Assembly: GCA_965153455.1 (NCBI GenBank)
Contig: OZ234493.1
Coordinates: 24,542,213-24,606,212, forward strand
DNA length: 64,000 nt
Direction: 5' to 3'
Origin: Sphagnum compactum
Lineage: Eukaryota
This document shows, in pieces, positions 621-57,108 of this stretch. The first letter of the stretch is position 1; each line of letters starts with the position of its first letter. The notes beneath the pieces are model-generated. The model was not told where the DNA came from and did no database searches. It saw nothing but the letters and a program-made list of their open reading frames with translations. Position numbers and translations under genes: made by a program.

Positions 621-928
621 TCAGCATTCCTAATACGACGTACGTGGGTCCCTACATTGGAAAAATTCCTCGCTTTTCTTCCTGCCTGCTGTGAAGAATA
701 TCCGTCCTTGACTTTCCTCAGCTCTGATCTTCGCACAAATTTTCTTCATCCCTGCCTGCCGTGACGAATCTGTCGTGGACTTTCCTGAGCTCGTGCCCTC
801 GCCTTCTTCTTCTTCAGCTACATCTGCCATTGTTCTCACACACGCAAGAAAAATCAACAACCGCAATGGTCATGGTCCAGTTCTCGAATTCTTATCCGAG
901 ACGACACTTCCAGCTAGAAAGGACAGTC

Positions 929-1409
929 ATGGGTATTATCGTTCGATATCTGCTCATGCTCGCCGCGGCGAGCTTTCTGGCCGTTGCCAAGCCAGTACTC
1001 CGGCTTCAAGCTGGAAGACTACAATTTCACCGACATAATCAACGGCGACGTTTGCATCGTCGGGGGCGGCTCGAGTGCCACCTATGCAGCCATCCGCCTA
1101 CGCGACTTCGGCAAGAGTGTTGTTGTAGTGGAACACAAGGACCGCATGGGAGGACATACACAGACTTATACAGATCCCCAGACCGGAGGTACAGTCGACA
1201 CCGGGGTGCTGGTCTTTCATAATTTCGACATCGTCAAGAACTATTTCAAGCGCTTCAACATCCCGCTCGTGACGGTGAACGGTTCCAGCCCTGGCCTGAC
1301 AAACAAATATGTGGACTTGCGCACAGGGAAGGAATTGGCGGGTTACGTGCCGTCGGACCCTACCGCGGCTCTGGTCGGGTACGCTGCACAACTCGCGAAG
1401 TACCCATAG
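929..1409 (+). pseudogene. Truncated, frameshifted paralogue of the fungal-type FAD-dependent oxidoreductase
   Basis: ATG at 929 gives MGIIVRYLLMLAAASFLAVA. Relative to the intact copy, an 11-bp deletion between GTTGCCA direct repeats shifts the frame. ORF 984..1409 has DVCIVGGGSSATYAAIRL...EHKDRMGGHTQTY and aligns to 9034..10449 up to KYP, where homology stops. About 290 bp of upstream sequence (~637-928) is also shared. Confidence 0.9.
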
Positions 1410-2430
1410 TGTAAGCAACAAAATATAAGGGTCTTTGAATAAAAGGACTAACAAGTAGATGATTTTCTAAGGATGATAAATAAAAAATATGGTACATTAT
1501 TTTTTAATTCTTATTCACATGAACTTCAAAACCTAAACTGTTATAATCATATTTTCAAAAAATATTTGCAAATACTTGAATTGAACCTAAAATTTGTGGT
1601 AATTCAAAAAATAAAGTTGAAGTACTTGAAAGTAGGTGAAATATTTTTGCAAGTATTTGGTTTTTTTTTTCAAGCACCTCAATATTGATGTGGTGAACAT
1701 TTTAGTATAAGTATTTTGGTTAATATAATTTGTTTTCATATCTAAAATCATCCCCAACCTTCTGAAAAGTAACATTATTGTTGGGGATACTTTTGGGGTA
1801 TTATTTCAAGTTCAAATGATATGAGACAAATTGTTTTGAAAAGCTAAAGGGAGGCTAGAAATGCCCATGAAAAAACTAAGGATTTCATTTCTTTTGAAAT
1901 GCTAGAGAAAGGTTAAAACTTAGAAGTTTAGAAAATTGTTTTTTTCTTGTTTTCAAGTAGAAAACTTGAGGTAAAAGCATTTACAAAATATTTTACTTAT
2001 AAGCACCCTTTCCAAATCCTAGGTCTTGATCATTCCATTTCCCATAGTTTTGGTTAATGGGCACTACCTATGCTAGAATTCTATGATTTATCAAATCTTT
2101 AAAATTTGATGTTTTTGTAAATCCTAAAATTGAAATAGGTAGTTTACACGAATGAATTTGAAGTTTGCAAATTCTTTAATTGCAATATTTATGTTAGGAT
2201 TCATGTAACCCTTAAAAATACCTATGATGGGGAATGTGCAATATTCAAACATGTTACAAAACACATGTAGTATAATACTTGAACGCACAAGATGATTATA
2301 ATTATTTCTCAAATGTTTTTAATCAAAATTAAATATTAACCGTTTGGCCCTCCATGGGATATAACTAATTACATTGTACATTGTGATCAATTAGAAGATG
2401 TAATCAATAAATATATAATCCATTGAAATT

Positions 2431-5400
2431 CACTACAACAAAACTATCTCCTTTTCACTAGTTAAATTTGACTAACATGACTCTGTAGTCAAATCTGAAA
2501 ATTGCACATGACTAACTATGTCCGTCATGACTAATCACAAATCTAACATAGTTTGTTATGACTTAGTGTGATATGAACTTTAGTCATAATAGATAATGTG
2601 ACTAAACACATGGAACCTCCTGGTGCCTATGTGTACTCGTACTAATAACACCATAATTGACGTTAGTCACATGTTACCACATGTAATGTGACTAATAATA
2701 ACATGAGCTAAATCAGTCATGGTAACTACACGTGTAGACAACAAATATAATATGACTAAAATCAATCAATGGAATTATGCGTGTAATATTAGCATGACTA
2801 AAATGAGTCAGGGGAGATACACATGTAGTAAGGTGATGGTAATATGATTGATATATGTCACATGAGGTACACATGTCTTGTACTTGCTACCACATGTAAT
2901 ATGACTAATAATAACATGTGACGTAAATTAATCACGATAAATTCACATCTAGATTAAAGATCAATAATATGACTAAAAGTAGTCAATGGAGCTATATACT
3001 AAAGTCATATTAGTAGTTAACATGACTAAAATTAGTCCATTGAGATACACGTGTAATAAGAATAGTGGCAATTTGTGACTAATATCTGTCACATAAAGTA
3101 CACATGTTTAATAGTTGTTACCACACATTCAAGAATGTGATTAAAAACAGTCACTTTAATTTCCTACATGGTAAGTAGATGTATATTTTATTAATTTGTG
3201 TAGGTATGGGAACTTTAAGTTTTTTCTCATAATTTTCCAATGCCTTGATGGATCACAGATTTATTTTAATTTTGCATTACAACAAAACATTTCAGCCTAC
3301 AAAACCATGCTTTTGGAATTTAACTAAAATAATTTCCTTATATACATATATATATGTATGTTCTAGCTTTTTCAAATACTTGTAATTGACAATTATTTCT
3401 AAATCAAAATGAAATCTATGTCTGCTTTGAAAATCAATGTAAGTTTTGCATAAATGTTATGCAAGGTTTGAAAATAAATGTACATGAAATGGAGCAAATA
3501 CTAATCATATGCATATGCAACATGCTCATATACACATTTCAAACATCTGGGAATGAATCATCATGCATCATTGGAGTTGTCTGATGCATAATCTTCTAGA
3601 CTATTAGATCCATTCTCTTGGTCCCCTTCACTATCATCAACATTCAAATTTGTAGCATTAACAATAGACCTTCTTACAATAGTAGGTAGTTGATTTGTTT
3701 CTTGTATAGACATCGAAACCTGCAACTCTGAATAATCATCAGCATTATTGACCCTAAACATATCAAACTCAGTAAGGTCGAGTTGAATGTTTTCTGTTAT
3801 TCGTCTCCCACGAGGATCTTTTCGAAAAACTACTTTCCAACCCCTCTTCCTAGAATCACAATTAGAAAAAAAAATTGTTTTACATGTAGTGGAAAGGCAA
3901 AAGACTGGTCTAAGATTGGAATTAATGACCCAAAGTTCACAAGGGTGAAGCCATACTCATTTCATTTTACAGTTGCATCATTTCCACTATAATTGGCTTT
4001 CACCCAATTACATAATAACACCACAGTATTTAGAACCCCATAATTTAACTCTAGGATCTCTTCGACCCACCCAACATACTCCAAATTTACAACAATGGGC
4101 CTTTGATCATTGGGTCCTGAAACACACACCTGTTCAAATGTGGCAACTACGCCACTATCATTTGTGGTTAAATGTTCTTCCGCATTCACCACATGGATGT
4201 GGTTCCCAAATGCATACATTGACTGATATGACCTAGCTTCTAGCATAGGTGACATGGACATGTGTATTGTCTCTTGATCAATCGTGTCCCCTCCTTGGAT
4301 AACTAAGGCAATAAAAGGCCTTAACCATGTTGGAAATGGGGGCAATTCCCAATGGTGATCTGGGAATGCCGTGTTTGAAATTGCCCACTTTGATGTAGGA
4401 ATTCCATCCTTTCAGTCTTTCTTTCTTGTACTTCATTGGCATATTTCTTATCACAACAAATTGTTTATGAGCTCTAGTTTCCCATTTTCCATTTGGAAAT
4501 TAAATTAAATTAAATTAAATAACCATAATGCCTTAGATGCTACCATTGAAATCAAACATATGTAGTAGCTCATATATTTTATTTAATTAATTAAATTTTT
4601 TAAAAAATTTCTTGAAACACAATAACAAACCTCACTTGACAAACAACAAGCTAGATCCACAAGCATTTAGTCCCATAGGAAAAAGGTTGATAGGACTTTC
4701 ACCTACACACACCACTGGGTTTGAAGTTTGAACCCATGACCTTCTTGCAGAAATCCCACTTAGGTCCCAAAGTGGGCTATACCAGTGACCCATCAAAACT
4801 TCAATTTTTTGTTACAACATCAAGAGTAGCCTCCCAAAAAAGGTTTAGCATAATTAAGTTGACCTCTACTTAAAACTGTCAAAGACAAATTAACTATAAC
4901 CATTGAATTTGGTTATTTATAATTAGAAGTTTTATAAATCTCCTACAACAGCCAAAATAATTGGAGTTGAATCCAACATTTTTAAAGACTTGACAATTTG
5001 TACCTGAAATTTGTGTAATCACCATGTACATAAGCTATAAGTTAATTCTTGGATCTTCCAGCATGAAAATTTTCCCCATAAGTTCCAACTTTTTTTAATC
5101 CAAACAACAGTATAACTACAACAACCAAAATAATTTCCAATTTATCTAGCTTTTTCAAAGACTTCACAATTTTGAATCAAATTGCATGTTTCTTGGAAGA
5201 TGAATAAATTAATTACCTATGCCATGGAGACATTAACTCGACATACTATAACACAAAAGAACATGCCATGTCATGAAGGTTTGCAATCATGATTCGTGGC
5301 CGCCCATTTCCTTCAAGCACTTCGTTATTCATGCGGGGCTCTTCTTTGTCATCCCACACCCATCTCCTCGTGGCTATGAAATCTTGTATGTATTAAATGC

Positions 5401-6110
5401 CAAACCACAAAGCCTCTTCTAGCGTATACCCTTTAGCCATGCTTCCTTTTGCCCTTGCCTTATTCTACACAAATCCTTTTAAGGTTTTCAAATACCTTTC
5501 AATAGGTTACATCCAACGCATGTGGACTAGACCACACAACTCCAATTCCTCCACTAGATGAACTAAGAGATGTGTCATGATGTCAAAGAAAGAAGGAAGG
5601 AATTCTTGTTCCAATAGAACTAAGCATATTGCCACTTCTTTCTTCAACTCACCCATAGTTGTTGGGTCCACAATCTTCACACAAAGCTTTTTGAAAACAC
5701 GACACAAACGGATAATTGACATCCAGCATCCCTTTGACATGAAGCCCCAAAGGCATAAAGGCAAGATGTCTTGCATCATGACATGAAAGTCATGTGATTT
5801 CATACCTTTCAAGTCCTTGTCCTTATGGACTCTCTTCTCCAAAGAAGATACATAGTGTGTAAGTGTTTAATGTAGGACACAAAGAAATATCTCTTTCTTT
5901 CAATCTGTCAACACATAAGAGCAACCTGTTTAATCAACCCACCTGCAATAGTTTGAAGCCAAAGCTTTGCCCATATCCCGCATTCCTTTAGGTCTTTTCA
6001 AACAACCGTGGTATCCTTTATGCCAAATATTGTTTTCAGAATATTTTCACATGTATTTTTTTCACAGTGCATCACATCCAAAGTATTCTTGACCAACAAG
6101 TCATGCATAT
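2431..6110 (-). mobile_element. CACTA/EnSpm DNA transposon remnant with TnpD-type transposase pseudogene
   Basis: Terminus CACTACAACAAAA at 2431, followed by many (A)TGACTAA subterminal repeats to ~3160. Minus-strand fragments LDVMHCEKN, GMKSHDFHVMMQDILP, FLPSFFDIMTHLLVHL...RWM*PIERYLKTLKGFV (DUF4218-like) and YVGWVEEILELNYG...LLCNWV (DUF4216-like) contain stops and frameshifts. Confidence 0.9.
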
Positions 6111-9033
6111 GTTATGAATGTGTCAAAACAAAAATTGTCATATTTTCAATGAACGTAGAAGTTTTGCAAAATCAACAATAAAATATGTTGGGTTTCTGTA
6201 CAATTGTTTTATGCACATGGTCATTTTGCACCTTCCAAATTTGTAAACTATGAATTATTTGAAAGTGTTGTAATTTCAACGATTTCTTCTAGTTGCTGCA
6301 AGAACAATGCCTTTTAATTTAAGACCAGGAATTTTCCCCTATTTCAGAAAACTAGGGTGAAAAAGATAAATATGTTGCAAGGTTCTTTTTTGGTAAAAGT
6401 TCACTACAAATAGAATTGTTTGGGGTTTGTCTTGCCACATATTTAGTGTTGGGTTACTATAAATATAGATAGACTATCACAAGGATGTACTTTTCTTCTG
6501 AGAGGTTCTAGGTTTCTGATAAGTTGCCATTGTTCAAATCCATTTAATTGGAATGATGCATGCCTATTCATGATGTTAATTATAGCAATAAATTAAGATA
6601 ATTTTTCAAAACAAAACACAAAATTTGGTAGAATCTGTACACTTTAAAAAATTCTTAGTTATTTATGAAAAATTAAGACAAAAATGTAATGTTTTGAAAA
6701 AATTATATATATTTTTTGTAACATATTGCAAAAGATTTCATCCCAAAAGTCCTTTCTATGAGAAAGTGAAAATGACCACAAAAAAGATTGTAATCCTTGA
6801 GTCTTTCATCACTGTTGGCTCATTTGATTGTGATCACACCCATAGAAAATCATGTTTTAGATGCATAATTATGTTAATTTGGAAAACTACTTTTTAAAAG
6901 CTTCACATAATCATAATTGAAATATTCAAGTTTTAATGCAAATTTTATGCATGATAATTCAAACATCAATATCACAACATTTGAATAATCTGATTTTCAA
7001 AAAATAATTAGATATTAACTTGCGATAAATAAATTAAATGATGAAAGTAATAGAATACATGAAATATGATCACATATGGTTTATTCAATATAGCAAGTAC
7101 ATTCAAAAATTTGTAGCATTGTTAAAAGCCTTAAAATTCAAAAATGTAAACCCTACTTTTTATCTACTTTTATTTTTTGAGCAAGGATCACCAATTAGCC
7201 TATTTTAACATGCTTATGCCCATTATAGTGTGGTAATGTCTTGATTAGTGACAACCAATGCTTATAATTCTAATAATTATTTTAGTGCATGCTTAAAATA
7301 TCGACACCAAACCATAGAAAAACCACATAATATCCACAAAAACCACCAAAAACTCTCAAGACAGTCATAAAAACATCGTAGGAAAACCGTGTAAAAAAAC
7401 AATAGTGATAAATCGCATTCATTGCCATAGTACTTTTTTTTACATTCACTTGGATAGAGTTGCCAAGCCAAGAATCGGTATTGGATGAATGCATCAAGAT
7501 CAATGGTTTTTTAGTTTTTAGTATTTTATTTTTTTCCAAAGATCTATGAGGACATAATCTAGATTTAAAAGGAGGTAATGTTAACCATCCATTAAGTACA
7601 AATTTAACCTTCGTGATTGTAATGTCATAATTTCTATACATATAACTAATTAGTTATTACTTATTTTGCTAGTTATAGTTAGGGATACATATTTTGAATT
7701 AATATTAACCATGTATTAAGTAAAGATTTAATTAGAATTTTATAAATATTAACTAATTAGCTCTTAATTATCTTGCTAGTTCTAGTCAATGGTTCATATT
7801 TAAATAAATTTTTATTTATTGTTATGTGACTAGTTTAATTACTAGTAAGAATAGGTAATCTATATAAAAAACTAAGTTTGAATATATTGTCAAATTCTTA
7901 TTTATAATTTGTAATATATGCATGAGTATTAATTTGTCTTGTTGATTTTAGAATTTGAATCAATACATCAATTATGTGCTTAGTTTGAACATGCATATGA
8001 AATAATGAGATTATTGTGTACATGTCTTTCTAGAAATATATATTTTGTTTATCAACATTTTGAAACCATGATATGCTAACAAAATGGCTTTGAACCAAAT
8101 GACCAAAGACTTTATGGCCAATTGAAAAGGGAGGATGATGGGTAAACTGAGGCCCAAAGTGAGGCCCAGTTTAAGGATAACTTCAATATCCCAATTATAG
8201 TAAGGTGGACCCTGGTTCTAATATCTTCCATTTTCTGCTTGCAGTGGGGACTGGGGGAAGTACTACATGCCTATGAAACTAGCATGAAGGTGATCTGTTG
8301 ATTTTACACCAGCTAAGCTAACCATTCTAACATTTGCAAAGTTTTACTAAGATCCTTGATTAAACAGAATGAAAGGGAGTCAAGAAATCGCTCCTCAAAG
8401 CTAAGGAAGAAATGAATTACTGGTCTTGAGAACAGCAAAACCTTCCAGCTTCTCAGATCATGTGAGCTGAAGGTATCTCGTAATATCTCGTAGCACAAGA
8501 ACTTGATAATCTTGTGAGTATGTGACTATTGCCTGCTTCATTCGGGTTTCAGAATTAGAACCGGGCAAGGTCCAAAAATTCAAAGAACAAGATTGACCTC
8601 ACCAAGCAAATACAGACAGAATGCTCCTCAACAACAAGACACTTGTGAACACTTGTGACATGCATATTGATAATGGGATTTTGATGCATGCTCAAAGTTC
8701 CCTGAGCTCTACTTCTCTGATGAGTTAAGCAAAATGCAGTTTTTCTTCAATATATCCTTTAGCCATCATCCTCAGTTTGGCTCTAACCTCAGTGGCTATT
8801 GAAGTCGGTCGGTCGCAGACGTAGAGAGTATATGACGCAAGTAATGGTTCGGACTTTACAGACGCGACTAGCAGCGGGAATTGACCATGAAACGGACTAC
8901 ATCCGGTTTGCTTGTCGCTTTGTTTATTTGTTCCTTCAACCTCTTCCCGAGATGAATCTACTTCAATATTCTAATGCGTAATCGTTGTAGATCGAACGGC
9001 AGTCCAGCGCATCGGTTCCTATCATAGCCACCT

Positions 9034-10449
9034 TCACGCCACGACCAGCGGCAGCAGCGTTTCTGTAAACTGCCACAGCAGGCTGGAGTCGTGCGTGTGG
9101 AACGCCGCACCGGTGTAATATGTCCTCCTCTGGCCCTGCAGCCCGTACAACTCCTTGTAGAACCCATTCTTGATCGCCTTCGCCGGCACCGTGAGCTCAT
9201 ACGGCGTGTGGCTGGAAAATATCGCGAAATACGGAATGGTCGTCGGCAGCGTGCCCGCCGTCCCCAGCCGAGAGATGGTGCTAATGATATCGGCCTGGAC
9301 TTGAGCGTCCCGGAGCGGGTGGTCGCTGCCGAATAAAACTGCGTGTAGACCGGGAACCGTTGTCGGGCTGATCTGGTAGGCACCCGGGAGCACGGGTAGG
9401 TTATACGGTGTGTCGGCGGCGACGTTCACGATGCTGACGTTATCGGGGATGCCGCTGTGCCGTATGAGGCTGGTGTAGTACGCACTGTTGCGAAACTGTG
9501 CGAAGAGAGAGCTTTCGTTGGAGGAGAGGTCCCAGCCGACGAGATTGTGGAACTTTGGCGGGATGGTCAGGATGATCTTCTTCGCCTGGATGAGCTTGAG
9601 CCCGTCCCGAGTCTTGACGACCACCTTGGCGTATGCTCCCGCGGCGTCGCGGTCCATCGCCACGATATAACTCTTCAACAACACATCCTGCCCGAGCTCC
9701 GCCGTCGCCTTCTCGTATAATTCGCTATTATCCTGCCGTGCAGTCGTCAAGAACCCAATCTGGAGGTCCCTGATGACATCGCTCCCGAAAAGCTTGAACA
9801 CGTACAGGGTCGAGTGCTTGAGGAAATCGCCAAACCCCTGCGCGTATTCAAAGAGTAACTGGACGACCCCTTGGAGGGAGTATTTGGTGACGAAGTCCCC
9901 GAACGGCAAAAGCAGGTCCTCGGGCACAGGGTAGGTGAGGTTGAAACCAGTCTCGAGGTATGGGTACTTCGTGAGTTGTGCAGCGTACCTGACCAGAGCC
10001 TCGGTAGGGTCCGCCGGCACGTAACCCGCCACTTCCTTCCCAGTGCGCAAGTCCAAATAGGACGTCACCACGCTGGGGCTGGAGAAGTTCGCCAACACGA
10101 GCGGGATGTTGAACCGCTTGAAGTAGTTCTTGACGATGTCGAGATTATGAAACTCCACCACCCCGTATTCGACTGGACGTCCGGTCTGGGGATCCGTGTA
10201 TGTCTGTGTATGCCCTCCCATGCGGTCCTTGTGTTCCACCACAACCACACTCTTGCCCAAGTCGAGTAGGCGAATGGCTGCATAGGTGCCGGTCGAGCCG
10301 CCCCCGACGATGCAGACGTCGCGGGTGATTACGTCGGTGAAATTGTAGTCTTCCAGTTTGAAGTCGGAGTACTGGCTTGGCAACGCAGTGGCAACAGCCA
10401 GAAAGCTCGCCGCGGCGAGCATGAGCAGATGTCGAACAATAATCCCCAT
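9034..10449 (-). CDS. Secreted FAD-dependent oxidoreductase of the flavin amine oxidase superfamily (fungal type, beta-cyclopiazonate dehydrogenase CpaO-like)
   Basis: Intact intronless ORF of 471 aa from ATG 10449 (480 aa from 10476). It has a hydrophobic signal peptide, a Rossmann motif DVCIVGGGSTGTYAA, E-x5-GGHTQTY, and a C-terminal GFYKELYGLQGQRRTYYTGAAFHTHDSSLLWQF typical of this ascomycete family. GC content is much higher than the flanks. Confidence 0.92.
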   Translation of the reverse strand: MGIIVRHLLMLAAASFLAVATALPSQYSDFKLEDYNFTDVITRDVCIVGGGSTGTYAAIRLLDLGKSVVVVEHKDRMGGHTQTYTDPQTGRPVEYGVVEFHNLDIVKNYFKRFNIPLVLANFSSPSVVTSYLDLRTGKEVAGYVPADPTEALVRYAAQLTKYPYLETGFNLTYPVPEDLLLPFGDFVTKYSLQGVVQLLFEYAQGFGDFLKHSTLYVFKLFGSDVIRDLQIGFLTTARQDNSELYEKATAELGQDVLLKSYIVAMDRDAAGAYAKVVVKTRDGLKLIQAKKIILTIPPKFHNLVGWDLSSNESSLFAQFRNSAYYTSLIRHSGIPDNVSIVNVAADTPYNLPVLPGAYQISPTTVPGLHAVLFGSDHPLRDAQVQADIISTISRLGTAGTLPTTIPYFAIFSSHTPYELTVPAKAIKNGFYKELYGLQGQRRTYYTGAAFHTHDSSLLWQFTETLLPLVVA

Positions 10450-11034
10450 GCTCCCCTTTCTAGCTGCAAGTGTCATCTCGGAAAATAATTCGGAACTGGA
10501 CCAGCACCTTTGGGGTTGTCGATTTGTATTGCGTGTGTGAGAACGATCGCAGATGTAGCTGAAGAAGAAGAAGAAGAAGATCCGAGCTCAGCAAAGTCGA
10601 TGACAGATTCGTCACGGCAGGCAGGGAGGAAGAAAAAAATTCTGAGGAATTGTGCGAAGGTCATATCTGAGGAAAGTCAAGGACGGATGTTCTTCACGAA
10701 AAACGAGGATTTTTTCCAAGGTAGGGGCCCAAATACGTCTTGCTCAGCACTTTCTACTTTCTTTTCTCTCACTGTTGCTGACTCTTCTGAGAGAGTCAAT
10801 AATCGAGAAAGTTTTGCATTGGCAATGTGCATGCAGCTGAGTGGGGTCAAGTCCATAAGTGGAGATGTGCACGAGATGATTGTGGGCTGTCGTGCCCTGT
10901 TTAAATGGTTCCACCTCCAGTGGGATCACCCAACATGATCTCCCTCTTGCCGCTTGGATAATGCCCGATACGCATTGTGTTGACAACTCTTGCTAATGAT
11001 CTTGTCTTCCTCATTCTTGACTATTTTCCATTCA

Positions 11035-11992
11035 GGCCCCCTTGATACTAGGAGTCAACCCCAATGTTCAACCCAAATCCAGCATTCCTACTGGTGCAAA
11101 AGTTGAAATCAGCCCCAAGGGCTTTACACTAGGAGTCAAGGCTGAAATAGAAAAAAAGTTTTCAATCTGCCCCAAGTACTAATAAATGCTGAACTTTATG
11201 ACCTTGTATTGGCCCCAAGGCTGAAAAAGGATACCATCATTTTTGGGAGGCCAATTTGCGACCCTTGGGGCCAATGTTCCAACTTTTATTAACAAGTTTG
11301 AACCCCATGCCTAATGCACAGGTGTGTGTATTTGATGGTACATTATTACATATTGTAAAGGACCGTCAAATAATAAAAAACCCTTAACGAATACATGTGT
11401 ATGGACATTTAACCCATAAATTTCCATACACATGTATTCTTTAAGGGTTTTTTATTTGTATTTATTCTTATTAATGAAAACTACTATTAGTCTCAGCCTC
11501 ACTTTGCAACTATTCTTGAAGTCTATAGCTAAATTTGGCTATATCAATTTGTGGATAATCGCCAGTTTGGTTAAATCACAAACTAAATCAAACTAAATCA
11601 GTTTGGCTAAATCTGATGTCAGAGCGATGGCAGGGTGCCACTTGGCTGAGGACTAAGCTCTTCTTCAGCCTTGGAGCCTTATGGTTGGAACTCCAAGGCT
11701 CAGTCACTACCACACCTGCGCCTGTCCACACGGGGTCCACATTTTGCCCCCACGGGCTCCACATTTCGCTCCCCTTATTGGGAACGTGACGGTGACGCAG
11801 CCATCGATCCCGGCTATATTTAGCTACTGTCGGTCCGGATTCAAGGGAAGCTACTTTCTTCCTTTACTATATGTAATATCCTGACATCAATGTTCTAGCA
11901 TTTATTAGTAAGTTGGGGCCAATTTGCAACCCTAAAATGCTCGAACTTGGCCCCAAGTTTTTTTGACCCTGATTCCTGGTGTGAAGCGGGCA
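11035..11992. mobile_element. PIF/Harbinger-like non-autonomous element
   Basis: Left end GGCCCCCTTGATACTAGGAGTCA versus reverse complement of the right end (T)GCCCGCTTCACACCAGGAATCA. TCA flanks both ends (11032-11034 and 11993-11995) as a 3-bp TSD. Internal GGCCCCAA/TTGGGGCC repeats. Confidence 0.65.
11614..11889. mobile_element. Short solo LTR-like element nested in the Harbinger-like MITE
   Basis: 276-bp GC-richer block bounded by the perfect inverted termini TGATGTCAG...CTGACATCA (TG...CA). No matching TSD seen. Confidence 0.6.
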
Positions 11993-12324
11993 TCAGTTTA
12001 AAGGCCAGTATACTACTGTTGAGATCTTGGGATGGTGAGGGAAAAAAGACCTGAGGGGCAGAGTAGGTTTGTTACAGTTCACAAGCTCGTTCATTGCTAG
12101 GGTTCTGCACTTGGGGATTGGTAGGTTCTTTGTGAGGAGGAATGGTTTACCAAAGCCTTCCTTGCAAGTTCCTACAGTGCCTACTATCTCAGTGGAATCT
12201 GTAGAGTATTGGACCATGTTTGTGGACTCAGGTTCCTCGATGAGGAACTCATGCCTGTAGTTCCATTTGTTGAGCATATATATGCAAGGTTGTGGAAGAC
12301 TGCAGAAGAAGGTGGATAGGTGAG

Positions 12325-12895
12325 CAGGTATATTTGAAAATTTATATAATCTCCAGTTTTTTCAAATTTTAGAAATCAAAAGAACCTTCAGCTCTGTTTT
12401 TTTTTTTTTTTTTTGGGTTTAAAGTTTTCAAACAGCCTTAAATAACTGGAAATTTTCATGAAATACCTGTCTGTCAAATTCTTTATTTATTTATTTTGAA
12501 ATTTATTTTTCAGCTTTGACATATATCTATTGAATAATTAATTAATTTTGATATTTTCATTTTGAGAAAGAGAATCTCTCAATACTTTCCTTCAAAAAAA
12601 TTTTGTTATTAAAAGTAATTTCAAAATTTCTGAAAATAGTATAATTAGTGTCAAAGCTGCCCAGGTAGTAGGGCAACCAGTAAGTAAAGAAGCAGCAAAA
12701 TTGGAGAAACGTTGTTAGACAGGTCTCCTAAAATTTTCAGAACTGTGATCATTCATCATCATTCATCAGTTCTTTCGAGCTTTTGAGAACCATCAGTATA
12801 TATCAAGGTTAGTTCTTTTGATTTTTTTGAGAACCATGGAGATACACACATCATCTCTTCAAGAGCCACTCTGATGACCGCCGGTTATTTGGTCC
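12325..12895. mobile_element. AT-rich MITE-like insertion within the viral element
   Basis: Abrupt AT-rich block with poly-T and repeated TTGAGAACC/AGAACC motifs separating two coding-like decayed segments. Ends are not precisely resolved. Confidence 0.45.
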
Positions 12896-15033
12896 CAAGG
12901 AGAAGCCTTGGGATGTGAAGACGTCGTATCGGTCAGGGGGCATTGACATCCCTAGGGTTAGTTATCTCAGGGGATGCATTGTATGATATCAACCAGCAGT
13001 GTTCTCTTAATTTCCATTTTCTGTTATGTCTAGAGTCAATTTTGAGGTGTCTGGTGGCACAGACCATGGCTTGTGACCAATCATTTAGCTTTGATGGGAG
13101 CTGGGAAATGTCTAGAAGCTGTTAGTTCCCATGGAAGCTCTGCTTGTGGTGTAAACAAAAATCTGAACCTGCCATTAGATGGGGTCTGTAGGAAGAACAG
13201 AGAATACACATCTCTGTGTTCAGTTGAGCAATCAAGATTCGACAAAAATTATCTTGTATTGAGCTAACAGCATACTGTGTTTCTCTGTGAACTCAACTGG
13301 CAACCTGCCTGTCAATTTAGGCAATAAAATTGTCTCAGGGAATACCTAATGAGTAGGGGGGATGCACAATGACATGGGTGCAAGTTCTAAATCAAATAGT
13401 TTTTGAGCTTCTGCCAGAGCACCCTTTTTGCTGATGTTTGGCCTCTTAGAGAGCTTCTGGGCCATACACCTCCCCAGGTATTCCTTTCCTTTTATGGTGT
13501 TTTCTAGCCTTGACGTAGGCACTGGAAAATTTTACAAAAGCCCAATATGTGATTAACAGCACTTGTCACATAGGGGGAAGAGCAGAATGAACAACTGTGT
13601 CAGAAAATTCAAACAGTTTTGCTTGTTGAACATGGTGATGAGATTGAAGCTTCATATCCAGTTGTTCTGGCTTTGTGCTCTCATGAGAATATCTCATCCA
13701 ATGTGATAGGTGTGTCAAGCAAAAGATGTCTACACTCCCAACTAAATAGTCCAACTACATGACCATTCCTGTGTGGTGCTTTTGGTATTGGGGAGCTGCA
13801 CAACTGAAAGTTGATATTGTGTCTCAGTTTTAATGGATTTCATTCTTTAGAGAGTCCCGATTTGTCATAGATTTTTGTAGCAGATTAGAGAGCTTGGCAT
13901 GCTAAGAAGGCCTATGGAACCTTTACTGGACCTTGCAGGAGATCTTCTGATGCAGTGGAGGAATTTCTGTGGCAGGTAGCTGCAAGAGCTTTGTTGGGAT
14001 GCTTGATAGCTTACATGCTACACCTCATCTCCTTACTCTCTCACCTCTGACCTAGCCCCAGGTGCATTGTGGTAACCTAAAATTGAAGGCAGCAGCAACA
14101 GTCAGTTTTATTATACATTGTGCCAATAATAAAATATTTCAAGGTGCTTTTCTCTTCCAATATTGTGCCCCAACATTGAAAAGTTCCACTCTTTGTTAAT
14201 GAACCTTGTTGATTGTGTTCACACCAAGGTTAATACTGAAATTGAGCTACAGTAGTTTGAAGCCAAGGCATGGGTGGTGGGTGTCTCCTATCCAGCACTC
14301 CACTAACATCTCTTTCAGAATATAAACATTGCAAGCATTTCGTTTTCATGTTTTTCCATAGATAACCATTTGGTCATAGGCGTCAGGGTCAGCAATTTCC
14401 CATGTCAGACTTCAAAATTACTTATTTTGGGTCAATCCTAAATAGGGCACATTTGTTTCTTGTACTGCTTTACTCAAGTATACTTTGCTGCTCTTGCAAT
14501 TGCAACCTTCACACTTGACAGTGACTTCACATAAGCAGACCAGGACAAGTTCTTAGTTCTATGTTTTGTTCTATTAGGTCAGAATGTACATGAGGTGAAT
14601 CTGACACAGTTGCAAGAGCTGGCAAAGTGAAAGTTACATGAATTTTGTTTTCCTGTCACCAGTTGGTAAAAGATTTGGCATGAGGCTTTTACTCAAAAGG
14701 GATGACAATCTTTGAGGAAGGTGATGGGTAGCCACAATTGGCTCTTTTCCTTCATTGCACATGCCATCTGTTCTTGTTGCAGGTTTGCATCCTCTACTCT
14801 TGTTCCCTGATTTCTTTCTACAGTTTCTCTTTTTCTGCTCAGCAATAATAGTCAACAGGGATCATCTAAGCTTCAACCCATAAGGCTGCTGTCCCTTCTA
14901 GCTGAAGCACATCTCCTTGACACACTTGCAATAAGTTTCTGGGAAGGCTTTTGCCTTCAATTCCTCTCTGTCTGCCTATCTCCCTCTCTTATCTCTAGCC
15001 TGATGCAGAGACCATATTAGTGGTGAGCTCAGG

Positions 15034-15102
15034 CTGTCAGTGGAGATCTGCTCATGAGTGGAGATCTGCTTTTCTCTGTCATGAGCGGATCTCCACTGAC
15101 AG
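15034..15102. repeat. 24-bp inverted repeat (hairpin)
   Basis: CTGTCAGTGGAGATCTGCTCATGA (15034-15057) pairs with TCATGAGCGGATCTCCACTGACAG (15079-15102) with one mismatch. The 21-nt loop holds a third partial copy, GTGGAGATCTGCT. Confidence 0.9.
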
Positions 15103-43100: not shown

Positions 43101-43450
43101 TCGTGAGAGTTCGAGTTAGAGTTCGAGTGCTGTGGCATCATGAGGCTAATTGCGAGGATTTTCGACTGGAGCTGAACTCTGTTGCATCAGTTATCTTGTC
43201 TTGTGCGAGTGTCTTGTTTTGGAGGAAAACAAACTTATAGTAGTCGAAGAAGAGGGCGGAACTTGTACAATTCAGGCGAAATGGTGTGGAAAGAATATGA
43301 TCATCAGCTGTTACACCTGGAGCTTGAGACGCCGCGATGAGGCACCTGGGAAAGAGCTGGAGGAGAGAGCAACAGCGGATCAGACCTTAGAGAGTAACAA
43401 CTGCTTGAGGAAAACTAAGTGATCATTGACGCCGGGCAAGGACTCTAGCG

Positions 43451-44735
43451 ATGGCAGCTGGGAATGCAGGTATGTTGCGAGCGCAACAGCTGCAGGAAAA
43501 GCGGAGCGCCGCACACCACCACCACCACCATCTCAGCAGCTACTTCATGGACCGGCCTGCAGCAGCAGCAGTGGAGTGTCAGTCGAAGGACATTCGTTTC
43601 TGGACTTCACTACGCGAGTTTCTTCTTCATGTCCTCTTCCGGTGCTACGGGAAGGCAGCGCCGGGGGGCCAATCAGTCCGCACCGCCGCCACCATGTCGA
43701 AGGCTAGCAATTACAAAGTCGAGAAAGAAAGAGTCGCGGAGTCGATGCTAGGCTCCGCTGTTACCGGTACCCTCTATGGCCAAAGGTACAAAAGAACAAG
43801 CTGCAGCTGCTGCTGCAGAGCATCGTGTCTTCTTGTTGCATTTCTTTGTTTGCAGAGAAGTGCTGAACATTGTTTCTTGGTCTACAGGAAAGGGAGAGTG
43901 ACATTCTGTGTGCAAGAAGATTCCAGAAGTGCTCCTCTCTTATTACTGGAGTTTGCAATGCCCACACAATCCCTGGTCCGCGAGATGTCTACTGGTCTTC
44001 TGCGAATCGCTTTGGAATGTGAGAAATCCAACAAGAACGCCTGCAAGGACTTGAAAGCAGGCGGCCTCTTCGCAGAGCCTGTATGGACGATGTTCTGCAA
44101 CGGCCGCAAGGTGGGTAGCTCAGGGACTGGTGTTCTCATCAGGATGGATTTGGATGTTTTTTTTTCTTCTTCTTGTGTTCCAAGAGTACACTATTGTGTA
44201 ATATGTGCCATGACCTAGTGTCTCAAGTTGCAATTTCTTGTGTACTATATGTCCCACAATAAACGTCACATATTGTACATCGTAATGAATGAAATTATAC
44301 AGTTTACCTCACACAAGTGTCATTAGTCGTGGTTTTTTATGTGTGATAAAACCCACTTTCTCTTGTTGTGGTACTCAATGTCTGATTGCTTGCTGGAACT
44401 GAATTGCATGCCCCTTTCTCTGTTCATGTTTGTGTGCTGCAATGCAGGTGGGTTTTGCAATCAAGCGACAACTTGTCGATGCAGATAGGGATGTGTTGGG
44501 TGTGATGCAATCGGTGACGATGGGTGCTGGTGTCATCCCAGCAGCTGTAGCCCAAGAGGCTACCTGCAAACAAGCCGTCGTTCTCAAACGTGACTCCGAC
44601 GATGATCAGGCCATCATGTACATGCGAGCGCGATACGAAAGAGTAGCGGGTTCTCCTGACAATCTCTCCTTCCACATGATCAATCCCAATGGATCCCCGG
44701 GTCAGGAGCTCAGCATCTTCTTCATTCGCATGTGA
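43451..44735 (+). CDS. MIZ1: MIZU-KUSSEI 1-like protein (DUF617), 3 exons
   Basis: Exons 43451-43785, 43888-44110 and 44448-44735 (281 aa) with GT-AG introns. Conserved VTGTLYGQRKGRVTFCVQED...LLLLEF..PT..LVREM..GLLRIALEC, PVWTMFCNGRKVGFA, VTMGAGVIP, MYMRARYERVAGS.D..SFHMINPNG..GQELSIFFIR. Orthology versus paralogy not resolved. Confidence 0.92.
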
Positions 44736-54400: not shown

Positions 54401-54836
54401 AGGTGAATTTCAATCAATTCTATGTGCAAACTGCACTTCCTCATATTATGGTTCATTGCAATCATCTGCAGAAAGTCAAAGACCACCACCTTGCTGCAGG
54501 GGGTTCATACTGGTCATTGTTGTCGTGGTTTATGCTTGGTGGCAATTCATGCCAGCAAGTACAAATCATATTTGCTGTTGGATTGACTCATTCAAGAGGT
54601 CTATTGCTAAAGAAGAGTTAATCTCAGGTAGGACTAAGCTTTTCAGGAAGGCTACATTGTGTGCAAAACAAAACTGGAGTGTGCATAAGCTTGGAGTGCA
54701 CCTTGTGGACATGAGCAAATTTCTGGGGCTGGTCAGGGGGGAAGTAGGGAGCAAACAGGCACTGTGCAGTGCACTTTCGGCGCAAAACTCGGCAGGCAGC
54801 ACATGCAGATGTGCCAGGCACTGATGCCATTGCCAT
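51454..54836 (-). CDS. LBD: LOB-domain (LBD/ASL) class I transcription factor, 3 coding exons
   Basis: Exons 54836-54702, 54091-53939 and 51684-51454 (172 aa) with GT-AG introns. C-block [39 protein letters not shown]...[21 protein letters not shown], and a leucine zipper [15 protein letters not shown]. The start could be further upstream (54860). Confidence 0.93.
52350..52630. repeat. Intronic tandem repeat (~40-55 bp units)
   Basis: Repeated CAACAATCTCTACTCAAGAATGTTTTTCCAAGAGTGTTTTT in LBD intron 2. Confidence 0.85.
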
Positions 54837-57108
54837 GCGCAGTCGGCGGTAAGGATGCATCTACTACTCCTTTTCTGTTTTTTCTTTCCAGCCTCCTTTT
54901 TGTCTCTTTTCTGAAGTGCCTTTCCAATACCCTGATCAATACAGTGGCCAGCTAGCTGCAATTGCTGCAAATCTCCACTTCCCACCATCTCTTACCATTG
55001 TATTTGGACTAGTACTCTTCTTCACCACTCCTTTTGTCAAGGACAACAAGGGAGTTTTGAAGTTTGTCCACTTCCCTCCATGTGATAGATATGCTCCATC
55101 TTTATTGCACCTTCTTGTCTCATCACCGCCTCCCTGCAGGAGGCTGCTTGATTCCAGATGATGATGGGCTTTGGGCCTCCTGATAGGTGGTGGTGATAGC
55201 AGCACATCAAAGTTATTGTACTCGGCTGTTCTTGTTGAATGCCTGCTGGGTGCAACGTGATTCCTCCTCATCCCTCTGTCATACCCTGCCAAAATAGTAG
55301 CAATGGGTAGTGTGACTTTCCTCCTGTTCATGTGACTGTGGCAGAACCGGCTTGTAACTTCCTCGCTCATTGTAGCCAATATAACTTCCAGCTGCCTTGT
55401 AGGGCGAAGGTAGGCTGGCAGTTGGTTGGTTCAACGGCTCCCCTCTCTCTCTAGCTAGATCCCAACAGGTGGTCTTCTCCCAACTCCTCCTTCCATTTCC
55501 CTCTCTATTTCTCTACTGCCCAACCCCGCCCGCCCCCCACACTTTCTTCAACACTTTTTCAATAAGGCTGCTTCTTCCCCACACACTCATCCCACTCAGA
55601 TTTCACAATTTGTGTCATTCTTTAGAACCCCCAAAAAGTCAGCAACGATTTCTTCCATTTTTTTGAGTTCCCAGCTTGATCCAAAAGCTTCCGGGTAGAA
55701 AGGCAACTTCGTGGGCTCACACATGCTGCTGCTGCTGCAAGGGCAGATTGTGACATGTACAGCAGTGTTTCGTCAGATTTTCAGCTAGAATCCACAAGTT
55801 GGATTATGGATGGCTACAGACAGCAGAGCTAAGAGCTTCAAGCAGCTATGGAAAGGCATGATTTGGGAATTCATGAAACTTGCCCCAGTGATTGCAGAGA
55901 GAGTGACAGAGAGAGACACACACAGATAGATGCGCAGAGCTAGCTAGGGCATGCCAAAAACGATAGAAAACAGTGAAGCTCAACTCAGCTCTTGTTTCTA
56001 AACATGTATCTCATCAACACACAGAGGAAAATCAGGATTTTATTTCATAATGGCAAAGCTGGATGGATGGATTGATAGTTTGATGTTAAACCTTCTGATT
56101 GGGAAAAAAAGGAAAAAGGGAAGTCAATTTTGAACCCTAAAACAAAAGAGCACACACAACAACAGCAACACAAAACCCTAAAATTGATTCCTTTCGCCCC
56201 GACCCACATACAGCGGAAGGAGATCTAATGCGGGCGAGATCTAAGTACACAACCCTTTTTACAAAGGAACCACCACACACAATGTGAAGAAGACACAGAG
56301 AAGAGAAGCAAATTCAGGGCAACAGTAGATCCAAACCCTAATTTTCTCATCCACCGCTGGAGGTACCTGAGTACCTACCTGAAGCCATAGACTCCGGATA
56401 AATTCAAAGAACAAACATGATCTCGTGATCACACCCAGCAAACATATGCCAACAAACAGCAACGGCAACAACAGAATCAATCGGGCAACCAACGAAGAAA
56501 TCCGATCGTCTTAAACACAAAAAACAAAACCGCATCCGAAGGAAGGCATATGCTGCATTCCTGCGCGTACGCCGCTTCGACCAATCGGGAGTAGACATCT
56601 GTCGCTTGGTAATTGGATAAATTTCTGCATTTCATGATAAAACTTCAAACTTGGCTTTTGTTGAGATGAGAAAATAGGTATTGCCGTTTGGGATGAACGT
56701 TGGTCTGTCTCATCCATGAAGGTGCTGTTATGGGGATTGTAATCTGAACCTTATCTTGATGAATAAAAGTGGATGAGATTTTTTATACCCACCAACCACT
56801 CGTCGTGTGTACATTTGGTCAACGAAGGCGATGGAAAAAATTAGGGCTCAGAAGAGAAGAAGGGAAGAGCTAATCATGAATGATAATTTGGTCGTTGTGG
56901 ATGATTATTGGTGAACTAAATCGACAAGCGGAAACCGAATACCCTGCACTGTGGATGATAAATTGTTAGTCGTTGATGAGAAAAGGATGAAAACCTGGAC
57001 TCTTGCTCAAGACTATGGCGCGGTGCAAGCGAAGCGAGAAAGAGAGAAAGAGAGAGAGCTAGCGAGGAAGTTGAGTGAAGAGAGCGCGACTGTTGTGTTG
57101 ACGCGGCG

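Follow-up and report, generated by a model that had tools for sequence, protein, structure and literature searches.

Transfers of fungal genes into peat moss are already known as a class. Published fungus-to-bryophyte transfers include FB-lectin, the killer protein KP4 and macro2. According to the same source, genes acquired by bryophytes contain few introns and have fungi as their nearest relatives; they are restricted to certain lineages and lie in surroundings rich in repeats (PMC12513842). The main texts searched on fungus-to-bryophyte transfer do not mention the enzyme family treated here, which may nevertheless be included in the supplementary lists of PMC12513842; no mention was found in the Marchantia paper on horizontal gene transfer, and our literature search for the family in Sphagnum or mosses returned nothing specific.

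The closest described enzyme is the beta-cyclopiazonate dehydrogenase CpaO of Aspergillus (PDB 9kp8, 9vex). According to PMC13003489, its His373 bears covalent 8-alpha-N1-histidyl FAD, and His165, Tyr283 and Trp317 are the residues most critical for anchoring the substrate. The polyunsaturated fatty acid isomerase of Cutibacterium acnes (PDB 2b9w), for which the same text reports a similarity to CpaO mainly in the FAD domain, is without the covalent flavin histidine (PMC13003489).

The present locus lies on contig OZ234493.1 of Sphagnum compactum, within a stretch of 64,000 nucleotides that was analysed as a whole, i.e. the window (Table 1). It consists of an ATG-started reading frame of 480 aa with no internal stop. 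Introns are lacking; the full protein is alignable in a single frame and the RNA runs list no splice joints. The gene has a GC content of 0.577 and a GC3 of 0.767, versus GC3 values of 0.41-0.56 in plant coding sequence elsewhere in the window, and the GC profile in 1-kb steps peaks at 0.58 over the gene against 0.25-0.42 in its flanks. A first-pass annotation, made from the letters alone, had described the gene as intronless, GC3-rich and fully open, with a signal peptide and three motifs of an ascomycete amine-oxidase-like family that includes CpaO, and these points are borne out, the signal peptide at the level of prediction. The motifs GGHTQTYTDP (aa 87-96), DLLLPFGDFVTKY (aa 187-199) and LQGQRRTYYTGAAFHTHDSSLLW (aa 446-468) are all present in the translation. 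A Sec-type leader is predicted from a Kyte-Doolittle scan and reading by eye, with a hydrophobic core of aa 17-28 that follows R15; the leader ends in A-T-A before LP, and R6 and K7 precede the core if M1 is the translation start. M10 (10447-10449) is the likely conserved start, because the paralogues begin at an MG(I/V) matching it. In the AlphaFold model, aa 1-37 have a pLDDT below 50, with a helix at aa 10-26.

Table 1. Features of the window discussed in the text, with position, strand and evidence
Feature	Position	Strand	Evidence
Truncated pseudogene copy, inverted: upstream region and codons ~1-172	637..1408	+	tblastn, Pfam, inverted-repeat arms I1-I4
DUF4218 fragment associated with plant transposons, located between the gene copies	5510..5866	-	PF13960 4.4e-14
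Transcript 3' untranslated region	8702..9033	-	depth of polyA RNA-seq run X19 in bins 8702-9052
Intact intron-free CDS, predicted CpaO-like covalent-flavin enzyme of amine-oxidase fold	9034..10476	-	ORF, Pfam, PDB, model, conserved columns
Predicted N-terminal leader, aa 1-31	10384..10476	-	hydropathy maximum aa 17-25, then A-T-A before LP
5' untranslated or leader region with (CTT)n tract	10477..10698	-	metatranscriptome contig pieces reaching 10564-10698
High-copy repeat directly upstream of the gene	11042..11392	.	summed contig word depth, run X15
Plant-specific DUF617 (MIZ1-type) gene, two frames or exons (43430-44215, 44403-44732)	43430..44732	+	PF04759 3e-28, 3.6e-29
LOB-domain (LBD) exon	54627..54860	-	CX2CX6CX3C motif scan; PF03195 8.7e-14

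The protein belongs, by its Pfam matches, to the flavin amine oxidase superfamily (PF01593, 1.3e-12, 48.2 bits, cut-off 19.8; PF13450, 6e-11, 42.9 bits, cut-off 21.9). A sequence search of the PDB finds CpaO with an E-value of 2.9e-82 over aa 40-476, and CpaO (9kp8) is also the best Foldseek match of the AlphaFold model (mean pLDDT 78.7, pTM 0.78), with an E-value of 4.9e-42, TMq of 0.83 and TMt of 0.93, and an rmsd of 2.2 over 437 columns at 35% identity. The modelled protein thus appears to have the three-domain CpaO fold over its full length. The second-best structural match is the isomerase 2b9w (TM 0.71/0.80), at 19% identity, a match that has been reported for CpaO as well (PMC13003489). 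Our search finds 453 members of the family among the representatives at E<=1e-30. Conservation among 53 non-Sphagnum relatives reaches at least 97% in 84 columns, of which the protein retains 82, the sole changes being L to M and D to E.

Sphagnum protein and CpaO belong to the same subfamily and have the fold and the Rossmann motif G-x-G-x-x-G(x)17-E in common, the latter intact as G58xG60xxG63(x)17E81. Residues were mapped by reading the alignment by hand against PMC13003489. His423 corresponds to the flavin-bearing His373 in an ungapped block and is invariant in an alignment of 15 rows; the gating, essential Tyr283 is retained as Tyr333. Like CpaO, the Sphagnum protein has N-glycosylation sequons and is predicted to be of the secretory type. 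Five N-X-S/T sequons are present in the Sphagnum protein, three of which (N45, N130, N179) are found in 8-10 of 10 Sphagnum rows versus 0-1 of 53 others. Substrate-anchoring residues of CpaO differ, i.e. His165 (Tyr211 in Sphagnum), Ser167 (Gln213), Tyr181 (Leu229), Tyr194 (Phe242), Trp317 (Tyr367), Asp412 (His462) and Tyr413 (Asp463), so that Tyr333 is the only one of the three most critical residues retained. Cyclopiazonic acid clusters possess hybrid PKS-NRPS and prenyltransferase neighbours. No ORF of such a cluster is found in the 64 kb, where plant genes and transposons occur instead: the ORFs of at least 150 aa comprise, besides the flavoenzyme gene, DUF617, transposase-like frames and others that have no assignment. 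Because the anchoring residues differ and the cluster is lacking, an identity as beta-CPA cyclase (beta-cyclopiazonate dehydrogenase) was ruled out, and the substrate is predicted to be other than beta-cyclopiazonic acid. True amine oxidase was likewise dropped as a candidate, on account of the differing pocket residues.

Copies of 77-91% identity are present in seven species, Sphagnum fallax, S. magellanicum, S. jensenii, S. compactum, S. balticum, S. tenellum and S. troendelagicum. Beyond the genus, the next among the best 120 of 816 matches are ascomycetes and actinobacteria at 55-65% identity, with five ascomycetes and four actinobacteria among the named rows. The host is a moss and not an angiosperm, the plant group with which the first-pass annotation had compared the family. 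As to homologues spread broadly across green plants, which by that annotation would speak against a transfer, the best 120 of the 816 matches name no plant other than Sphagnum. The nearest Atlas cluster, taken as a lead only, has 1,406 members, 99% of them Eukaryota and mostly Ascomycota.

The most careful phylogeny (IQ-TREE, 81 rows by 471 columns) classes most of its rows as fungal-type or bacterial by their N-terminus and a few named cluster members. Sphagnum forms one clade (100/100) on a long stem branch (0.35). Its sister is a group of Helotiales (UFBoot 98, SH-aLRT 76) composed of Chlorociboria, a Mollisiaceae/Helotiales species (P0188) and the row P0120, and both together sit inside lichen and other ascomycete sequences, with a wider group including Schaereria and Varicellaria at 90/72; the bootstrap of this tree is unsettled (correlation 0.984). 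A quick tree returns the same Helotiales sister with a support of 89. In a FastTree of 338 rows Sphagnum is nested in fungal-type sequences as well, with a Lecanoromycete clade containing Alectoria as its sister (0.74). The Sphagnum clade accordingly appears nested among ascomycetes at moderate support, with Helotiales as the best-supported candidate sister group. As the closest relatives are found in ascomycete fungi, a fungal source is favoured, and a fungus-to-moss transfer followed by duplication in the moss lineage is the most likely origin of the gene.

An actinobacterial donor, i.e. a soil or peat actinomycete whose gene for a Tat-exported flavoenzyme passed directly into the Sphagnum lineage and had its leader remodelled to Sec, is improbable. 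The highest non-Sphagnum identities among the best 120 of 816 matches, 63-65%, do belong to a Kineosporiaceae MAG and to metagenome proteins of Tat type. In raw identity, actinobacterial proteins equal or slightly exceed fungal ones (64-65% versus 57-62%), and the Sphagnum leader starts with MG and ends with ALP like the bacterial leaders. However, all three trees place Sphagnum with fungal-type sequences and the actinobacteria elsewhere (98/99 for their clade in IQ-TREE), and the leader is short, as in fungal rows. Forcing Sphagnum and 14 actinobacteria into one clade yields a tree 57.6 lnL worse (p-AU 0.044), a marginal rejection with a group that was picked after the tree was known. The check by BLASTp and maximum-likelihood tree proposed at the outset thus speaks for the fungi and excludes the actinobacteria only marginally. 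Composition argues the same way: GC3 reaches 0.96 in the closest bacterium, against 0.77 for the gene and 0.58-0.67 for fungal-type loci. The lack of introns, which would suit a bacterial source, is also seen in near fungal-type loci over their aligned part (L051).

Under the fungal reading, the donor would have been a filamentous ascomycete. An ancestor of living Sphagnum would have acquired its intron-free gene, which encodes an exported flavoenzyme belonging to the CpaO-like branch of the superfamily, and the gene would then have been fixed in a plant chromosome and duplicated. The outcome would be copies in tandem on one chromosome, another locus on a second chromosome, and several copies that have decayed. 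Consistent with this, the Sphagnum copies sit on chromosomes of 17-37 Mb, partly in tandem arrays; adjacent gene numbers occur in S. fallax (08G102100/102200) and S. magellanicum (08G098900/099000), the latter with further copies at 08G100200 and 16G056900. The window itself contains a truncated second copy, 8.5 kb from the intact gene. It is recovered by tblastn in two frames (aa 10-29 at 929-988; aa 32-172 at 984-1406, 79% identity) and still matches NAD_binding_8 and Amino_oxidase in Pfam. Its first ATG is changed to ACG, its leader has gained 1 nt by insertion and lost a stretch of 11 nt, and a stop is located where homology ends. The 5' region of the intact gene has been duplicated along with it and aligns to 740-928. 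LTRs or TIRs framing the gene as transposon cargo were not found, the repeats of positions 1-16000 being the inverted arms of the two gene copies.

Such decay raises the question whether the window copy, too, is a relic of the transfer, open and weakly transcribed but free of selection, a reading we regard as unlikely. Many family members are indeed broken (the truncated copy, L049/L050, L052, L054, L057) and the RNA depth is low. The comparison of dN/dS across paralogues that the first-pass annotation had recommended gives a divided answer, and constraint on this copy may be relaxed: ratios are 0.26-0.36 between two deep paralogue groups and 0.6-0.9 between close copies, with the window copy at 0.6-0.7 versus L042 and L043 and at 0.93 versus its closest relative L040, the last ratio being based on few changes at a dS of 0.039. 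Against a relic stand the 480 open codons, the near-complete retention of conserved columns, the intact FAD-binding motifs and His423, and the ratio of about 0.3 in the deeper comparisons.

Far less probable still is vertical inheritance of an old eukaryotic or plant gene lost in other plants, or a transfer from moss to fungi. The long stem branch would be compatible with it, and plant matches were surveyed within the best 120 of 816; yet an identity of about 60% to Pezizomycotina, and nesting inside them, is unexpected if plants and fungi parted over a billion years ago. The family is moreover large and diverse in Ascomycota, Sphagnum forming one shallow clade, and the lack of introns and the GC3 set the gene apart from native genes of the window.

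Contamination or an assembly chimera, in which a fungal or bacterial ORF was misjoined to moss DNA, might be suspected from the GC and GC3 island in AT-rich flanks and from the many fungi and bacteria living in Sphagnum samples, but is refuted for practical purposes by orthologues and paralogues on chromosome-scale sequences of seven species, by the truncated copy with its upstream region in the same window, by flanks conserved alongside the gene in independent contigs, by contig pieces of run X15 that follow the gene, as well as its flank on either side, with no unusual depth (none of those listed crossing a junction), and by the closest microbial sequence among the best 120 of 816 matches being at most 65% identical.

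The flanks in question align to independent moss-associated metagenome contigs at 8359-10636 (95.5%), 7148-11017 (91.7%) and 12169-15996 (93%). As the first-pass annotation had noted, the gene shares the window with MIZ1 and LBD genes, here matched by PF04759 and PF03195, and the DUF617 and LOB genes constitute a plant chromosome context. Its embedding among plant repeats is equally confirmed, by the DUF4218 fragment and by the high-copy repeat, whose summed contig word depth in run X15 is 3,250-29,084 versus 20-175 for the gene. The gene is physically integrated among native genes, an arrangement common to related Sphagnum species. Chromosomal position in seven species, syntenic flanks and nesting in ascomycetes together uphold the acquisition from fungi initially proposed.

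RNA-seq, also recommended initially, confirms expression with few reads. About 12% of the polyA run X19 provides 28 reads, all within 8702-10456, covering the gene and ~330 nt downstream only, with zero depth in 8000-8701. First mates lie on the plus strand in almost all of them, which with the usual stranded libraries indicates minus-strand RNA. The reads are 95-100% identical to the gene, and as 21 of the 28 are at 95-99%, their source is a related Sphagnum species or a paralogue. Metatranscriptome contigs cover 8473-9428 (a contig of 959 nt) and 9582-10698. The gene is transcribed as an unspliced polyadenylated mRNA, with reads from related Sphagnum, and the window copy would thereby still yield such a message.

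Most likely the Sec-type leader directs the protein into the secretory pathway, and N-glycosylation is likewise most likely. FAD is most likely attached covalently at His423, and the enzyme most likely acts outside the cell as a dehydrogenase or oxidase, to which a small organic substrate would give up a hydride and from which O2 would receive the electrons. A role in apoplastic chemistry, defence or specialised metabolism may be envisaged. The CpaO substrate pocket is not conserved. The proposal as a whole, from ascomycete transfer through fixation and duplication to a secreted covalent-flavin oxidase, seems to us probable. Peat, which ranks among the largest carbon stores on land, is built and preserved by Sphagnum, in part through an extracellular chemistry that holds back microbes and decomposition. 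A genus-wide, duplicated and expressed family of predicted secreted oxidases of apparently fungal origin is a testable candidate for this chemistry. The locus adds a well-documented case, with integration, synteny, phylogeny and RNA, to the fungus-to-bryophyte transfers, and reveals a strongly conserved, uncharacterised sister group of CpaO in lichen fungi, Helotiales and actinomycetes.

A broader scenario is put forward here as a speculation that we hold to be doubtful in its entirety. The family would be an unusually mobile and highly conserved group of exported covalent-flavin oxidases that has crossed between three kingdoms (Actinomycetota, Pezizomycotina and Sphagnum), and in which a bacterial Tat leader (M-G-L-T-R-K-D-V-L-K-L...A-L-P) was turned into a Sec leader of eukaryotic type (M-G...A-L-P). 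The gene that Sphagnum might have domesticated would stem from a helotialean fungus living in bogs and would have been expanded in the moss into a tandem family with fast turnover. Its secreted products could oxidise some common metabolite of environmental or microbial origin within the moss apoplast and so add to an antimicrobial, decay-resistant peat chemistry.

A described function was not found in our literature search for any member of the orthologue group in Pezizomycotina and Actinomycetota. No shared bacterial neighbour that could hint at the substrate emerged from 35 flanking ORFs of 10 out of 39 loci. The only recurring neighbour is an SDR-like ORF adjoining the Promicromonospora copies L003, L005 and L009, and one deep Streptomyces paralogue adjoins an NRPS module. 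Among the seven ORFs flanking the fungal-type metagenome locus L051 there are no Pfam matches.

The orthologues of Pezizomycotina (Helotiales, Lecanoromycetes) and Actinomycetota are collinear with the Sphagnum protein over its full length and have the 82 of 84 conserved columns in common with it, including the C-terminal F-H-T-H-D-S-S. Export leaders occur throughout the group, predicted as Sec-type in fungi and Sphagnum and as Tat-like, with M-G-L-T-R-K-D-V-L-K-L, in bacteria. In contrast to these orthologues, the Sphagnum protein has a plant host, three lineage-specific sequons and an extra residue near aa 281, and its family is tandemly expanded, with pseudogenes. In its gene structure, surroundings, distribution and nearest relatives, the Sphagnum flavoenzyme gene matches the pattern of acquired bryophyte genes described in PMC12513842.

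The gene at issue is a 480-codon open reading frame running from ATG to stop without interruption, as the first-pass annotation had held, and all three motifs quoted there are present in its translation. It is likewise intronless, since the entire protein is encoded in a single frame. Its composition (GC 0.577, GC3 0.767) bears out the GC3 richness claimed earlier, against a GC3 of 0.41-0.56 in the plant coding stretches of the same window (DUF617 exons, LOB exon and the ORF at 60381-61277), and GC is 0.25-0.42 on both sides of the gene in a 1-kb profile. Of the signal peptide described in that annotation, a basic residue, then a hydrophobic core (aa 17-28) that runs to A-T-A|L-P can be read by eye, and the leader is kept as putative. 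The paralogues start at a methionine matching M10, which is therefore probably the conserved start.

Features of the window and stretches aligned with moss metagenome contigs
Feature	Position	Strand	Remark
Truncated second copy	637-1408	+	inverted relative to the intact gene
DUF4218 transposon fragment	5510-5866
Alignment with L042	7148-11017		91.7% identity
Alignment with L040, L041	8359-10636		95.5% identity
CpaO-like gene	9034-10476	-	480 codons
High-copy repeat	11042-11392		directly upstream of the gene
Alignment with L048, L057, L068	12169-15996		about 93% identity
Transposase-like ORFs	32287-34219	-	three, adjoining or overlapping
DUF617/MIZ1	43430-44732	+	plant-specific; 43430-44215 = profile 7-82, 44403-44732 = profile 72-159
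LOB-domain exon	54627-54860		plant-specific

A word-indexed search of 5.8 billion protein clusters gave 816 matches among 8,000 scored candidates. Within the best 120 of these 816, the top rows (77-91% identity) belong to Sphagnum fallax, S. magellanicum, S. jensenii and S. compactum, and identity does not exceed 65% after the Sphagnum rows. The named rows here include five ascomycetes (Schaereria, Piccolia, Chaenotheca, Chlorociboria, Varicellaria) and four actinobacteria (Actinoplanes, a Micromonosporaceae bacterium, Promicromonospora, Mangrovihabitans), and no plant outside Sphagnum. Further carriers, named through cluster look-ups, are S. balticum, S. tenellum and S. troendelagicum; the look-ups also place protein P0075 in a cluster with Alectoria (Parmeliaceae) and identify protein P0188 as a Mollisiaceae/Helotiales species. 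The nearest Atlas cluster (1,406 members, 99% eukaryotic, mostly Ascomycota) is a lead only. A prokaryote scan with one genome per species returned 39 loci, the best in a Kineosporiaceae MAG (64% identity), followed by Promicromonospora and Mangrovihabitans (56-59%) and by other Micromonosporaceae, Streptomyces, Actinacidiphila and Polyangiaceae (43-52%). Bacterial N-termini possess a Tat-like M-G-L-T-R-K-D-V-L-K-L start, those of fungi and Sphagnum short hydrophobic Sec-type leaders. The closer fungal-type locus L051 lacks an intron; L058 (10-1550, on a short contig), a 50%-identical homologue, has a break of ~170 nt between aa 81 and 83 with different frames on either side, most simply read as an intron. 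Missing introns therefore cannot discriminate between donors.

For phylogenies, 370 proteins and the 39 loci were combined; rows of at least 380 aa were kept, and after a motif filter, which yielded proteins from 31 of the 39 loci, 338 rows remained. In the FastTree phylogeny Sphagnum forms a single clade (1.0), sister to a 45-row clade holding the Alectoria cluster (0.74); a clade with Varicellaria, Schaereria and Chlorociboria is next out (0.84), and the Tat-type actinobacterial clade lies further out. A more careful tree (IQ-TREE, LG+C20+F+G4 with PMSF, 81 rows x 471 columns, UFBoot/SH-aLRT supports) was built from hand-picked rows: 10 of Sphagnum, representatives of each neighbouring clade, and an outgroup of deep bacterial and unnamed rows. 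Sphagnum (100/100) is here sister to Chlorociboria, P0188 (Helotiales) and P0120 (98/76), within a broader group including Schaereria and Varicellaria (90/72), and a 14-row actinobacterial clade (98/99) stands beside fungal-type rows plus Piccolia (80/93); the bootstrap was unsettled (correlation 0.984) and several outgroup rows are long. A quick tree recovers the identical Sphagnum sister (SH-aLRT 89).

The acquisition from fungi proposed in the first-pass annotation thus receives moderate support as to the donor, which we conclude to be probably an ascomycete; at present Helotiales is the best candidate. That the Sphagnum gene came straight from an actinobacterium is unlikely, though with more than a negligible chance: forcing Sphagnum together with the 14 actinobacteria costs 57.6 log-likelihood units, but the rejection is marginal (p-AU 0.044) and concerns a group defined post hoc, after inspection of the tree. 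Composition points the same way as the trees, towards a fungal rather than actinobacterial donor, with GC3 values of 0.77 for the gene, 0.67 and 0.58 for a pair of fungal-type loci and 0.96 for the Kineosporiaceae gene. Contamination is for practical purposes ruled out by the alignment of gene and flanks with moss contigs L040, L041, L042, L048, L057 and L068, by X15 coverage and by the dead inverted copy.

Within the CpaO-like family at large, the Tat-leader actinobacterial clade (P0010-P0118, L001-L009: Kineosporiaceae, Micromonosporaceae, Promicromonospora) shares 55-65% identity with the proteins of fungi and Sphagnum, and in some fungal-type rows the leader (M-G-L-N-W-R-D-V-L-K-L..., M-G-L-S-W-R-A-L-L...) resembles a decayed bacterial Tat leader. 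Because this clade falls among fungal-type rows and such leaders are Tat-like, a second inter-domain transfer, in either direction, is suggested.

The Sphagnum copies sit on contigs of 17-37 Mb, and these matches assign the window to a Sphagnum moss rather than an angiosperm. The MIZ1 and LBD genes reported for the same window were both recovered, and together with the DUF4218 fragment they confirm a plant chromosome; the DUF617 match is split over two frames, by either an intron or a frameshift. A JGI metagenome scan gave 29 loci, many of them AT-rich Sphagnum contigs from moss samples, with which the window DNA aligns far past the coding sequence, and in run X15 the gene and its two flanks have contig coverage of ordinary depth. 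The upstream repeat is of very high copy number (summed contig word depth as high as 29,084 in X15, where the gene itself has values in the tens), with many loose ends and small rearrangement joints. Elsewhere in the window, the three transposase-like ORFs (GC3 0.74-0.76, without a Pfam match) belong to a family that is multi-copy in Sphagnum, some members labelled Transposase. They are 48-88% identical to proteins of S. magellanicum, S. jensenii, S. balticum and S. fallax, and the family shares ~50% identity with proteins labelled DUF659 in the oomycete Aphanomyces euteiches; it may be a transposon shared across kingdoms.

Gene numbers indicate tandem arrays in S. fallax (08G102100 and 08G102200) and S. 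magellanicum (08G098900 and 08G099000, plus 08G100200), the latter with a second locus (16G056900). The dead copy in the window, 8.5 kb from the intact gene, retains ~290 nt of upstream sequence and codons ~1-172; its first ATG is changed to ACG, its leader shows a 1-nt insertion as well as an 11-nt deletion, and a stop lies at the end of homology. Intact copies occur at L040/L041, L042, L044, L045 and L046, whereas L049/L050 (6001-9958) is interrupted by ~2.5 kb, L052 lacks ~120 internal codons, and L054 and L057 are frameshifted. L065/L066 are short 5' fragments on Sphagnum-type contigs from moss metagenomes. Gene death is frequent here, and the Sphagnum copies form a resident birth-and-death family.

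Among 53 close relatives outside Sphagnum, 84 alignment columns reach a conservation of at least 97%, and the window protein retains 82 of them (exceptions L86M and D103E). NG86 dN/dS is 0.26-0.36 between two deep paralogue groups; for close copies it is 0.5-0.9 (window copy with L040, 0.93 at dS 0.039; with L042, 0.69). These ratios show long-run constraint, and recent relaxation or diversification is indistinguishable from noise. Sequons N45, N130 and N179 are present in 8-10 of 10 Sphagnum rows against 0-1 of 53 others, which fits adaptation to a eukaryotic secretory pathway; CpaO requires N-glycosylation (PMC13003489, section 11). The gene was found in seven Sphagnum species, which we take to span at least three subgenera. 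This spread, a dS of ~0.32 between the two paralogue groups and a stem branch of 0.35 substitutions per site against ~0.1 within-clade depth place the transfer before the diversification of living Sphagnum.

Four of the 19 listed sequencing runs were mapped. In polyA RNA-seq X19 (raw reads, ~12% of the run), 28 reads match at ≥95% identity (7 at ≥99%), all within 8702-10456 and none in 8000-8701 or 10457-11041; in nearly all of the depth the first mate maps to plus, the pattern expected of a minus-strand transcript in usual stranded libraries. Metatranscriptome contigs (X1, X2) span 8473-9428 as a single 959-nt piece and 9582-10698 as several, and no splice joints are listed for the RNA runs mapped. 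Together these data give an unspliced transcript whose 3' UTR measures ~330-560 nt and whose 5' leader extends over ~220 nt or more; depth is low and the reads come from related Sphagnum, not necessarily the sequenced individual.

Fungus-to-bryophyte transfers are an already recognised class, to which the Sphagnum gene would add a member: PMC12513842 counts 1,809 acquired families across 49 streptophytes, with few introns and repeat-rich settings. The CpaO-like family is unmentioned in the main texts found by literature search and in PMC12890914, and may stand in the supplements of PMC12513842 or in Ma et al. 2022. The gene offers a clean transfer case, backed by several lines of evidence, in a genus of ecological importance, and it gives a way into an uncharacterised group that is sister to CpaO.

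As to function, an intact flavoprotein of CpaO fold (in a predicted model), the conserved covalent-FAD histidine and an mRNA are established, alongside a putative export-type leader. By analogy with CpaO, whose reaction begins with FAD-mediated hydride abstraction (PMC13003489, abstract), the protein would be secreted and glycosylated and would oxidise a small organic molecule with O2 as final acceptor. Close orthologues carry an export leader in every host, Tat-like in actinobacteria, a route apt for a folded protein with a bound cofactor, and Sec-type in fungi and moss; no biosynthetic cluster surrounds them at the 10 bacterial loci examined (35 flanking ORFs). Both observations favour a substrate outside the cell over a pathway intermediate. 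A deep Streptomyces smyrnaeus paralogue (L035, 31-2313; 44% identity) adjoins an NRPS module (AMP-binding, PP-binding, thioesterase), the sole examined bacterial locus with a secondary-metabolism neighbour.

Residues of CpaO (PMC13003489) placed by hand on the alignment with the window protein
CpaO	Role	Window protein
G13xGxxG(x)17E36	Rossmann FAD motif	kept: G58, G60, G63, E81
His373	bears covalent FAD	kept: His423 (invariant in alignment)
Tyr283	essential, gating	kept: Tyr333
His165	substrate contact	Tyr211
Ser167	substrate contact	Gln213
Tyr181	substrate contact	Leu229
Tyr194	substrate contact	Phe242
Trp317	substrate contact	Tyr367
Asp412	substrate contact	His462
Tyr413	substrate contact	Asp463

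Pfam assigns the protein to Amino_oxidase (PF01593, 1.3e-12) and NAD_binding_8 (6e-11). The CpaO kinship stated in the first-pass annotation is upheld by the PDB, where the two CpaO entries are the sole strong matches (E 2.9e-82 and 7.8e-82, aa 40/48-476) and putrescine oxidase follows at 5e-7 over the Rossmann segment only. An AlphaFold2 model from a 15-row alignment (mean pLDDT 78.7, pTM 0.78, disorder confined to aa 1-37) has CpaO 9kp8 as its best Foldseek match (E 4.9e-42, TMq 0.83, TMt 0.93, rmsd 2.2 Å, 35% identity), followed by the P. acnes fatty-acid isomerase 2b9w (TM 0.71/0.80), the same order as reported for CpaO's own structural matches (PMC13003489, section 14). The window protein is thus like CpaO in predicted fold, Rossmann motif, covalent-FAD histidine and gating tyrosine, and by fold and cofactor site it belongs to the CpaO-type subfamily, but the seven substrate-contact residues tabulated above are replaced, which rules out a beta-cyclopiazonate cyclase.
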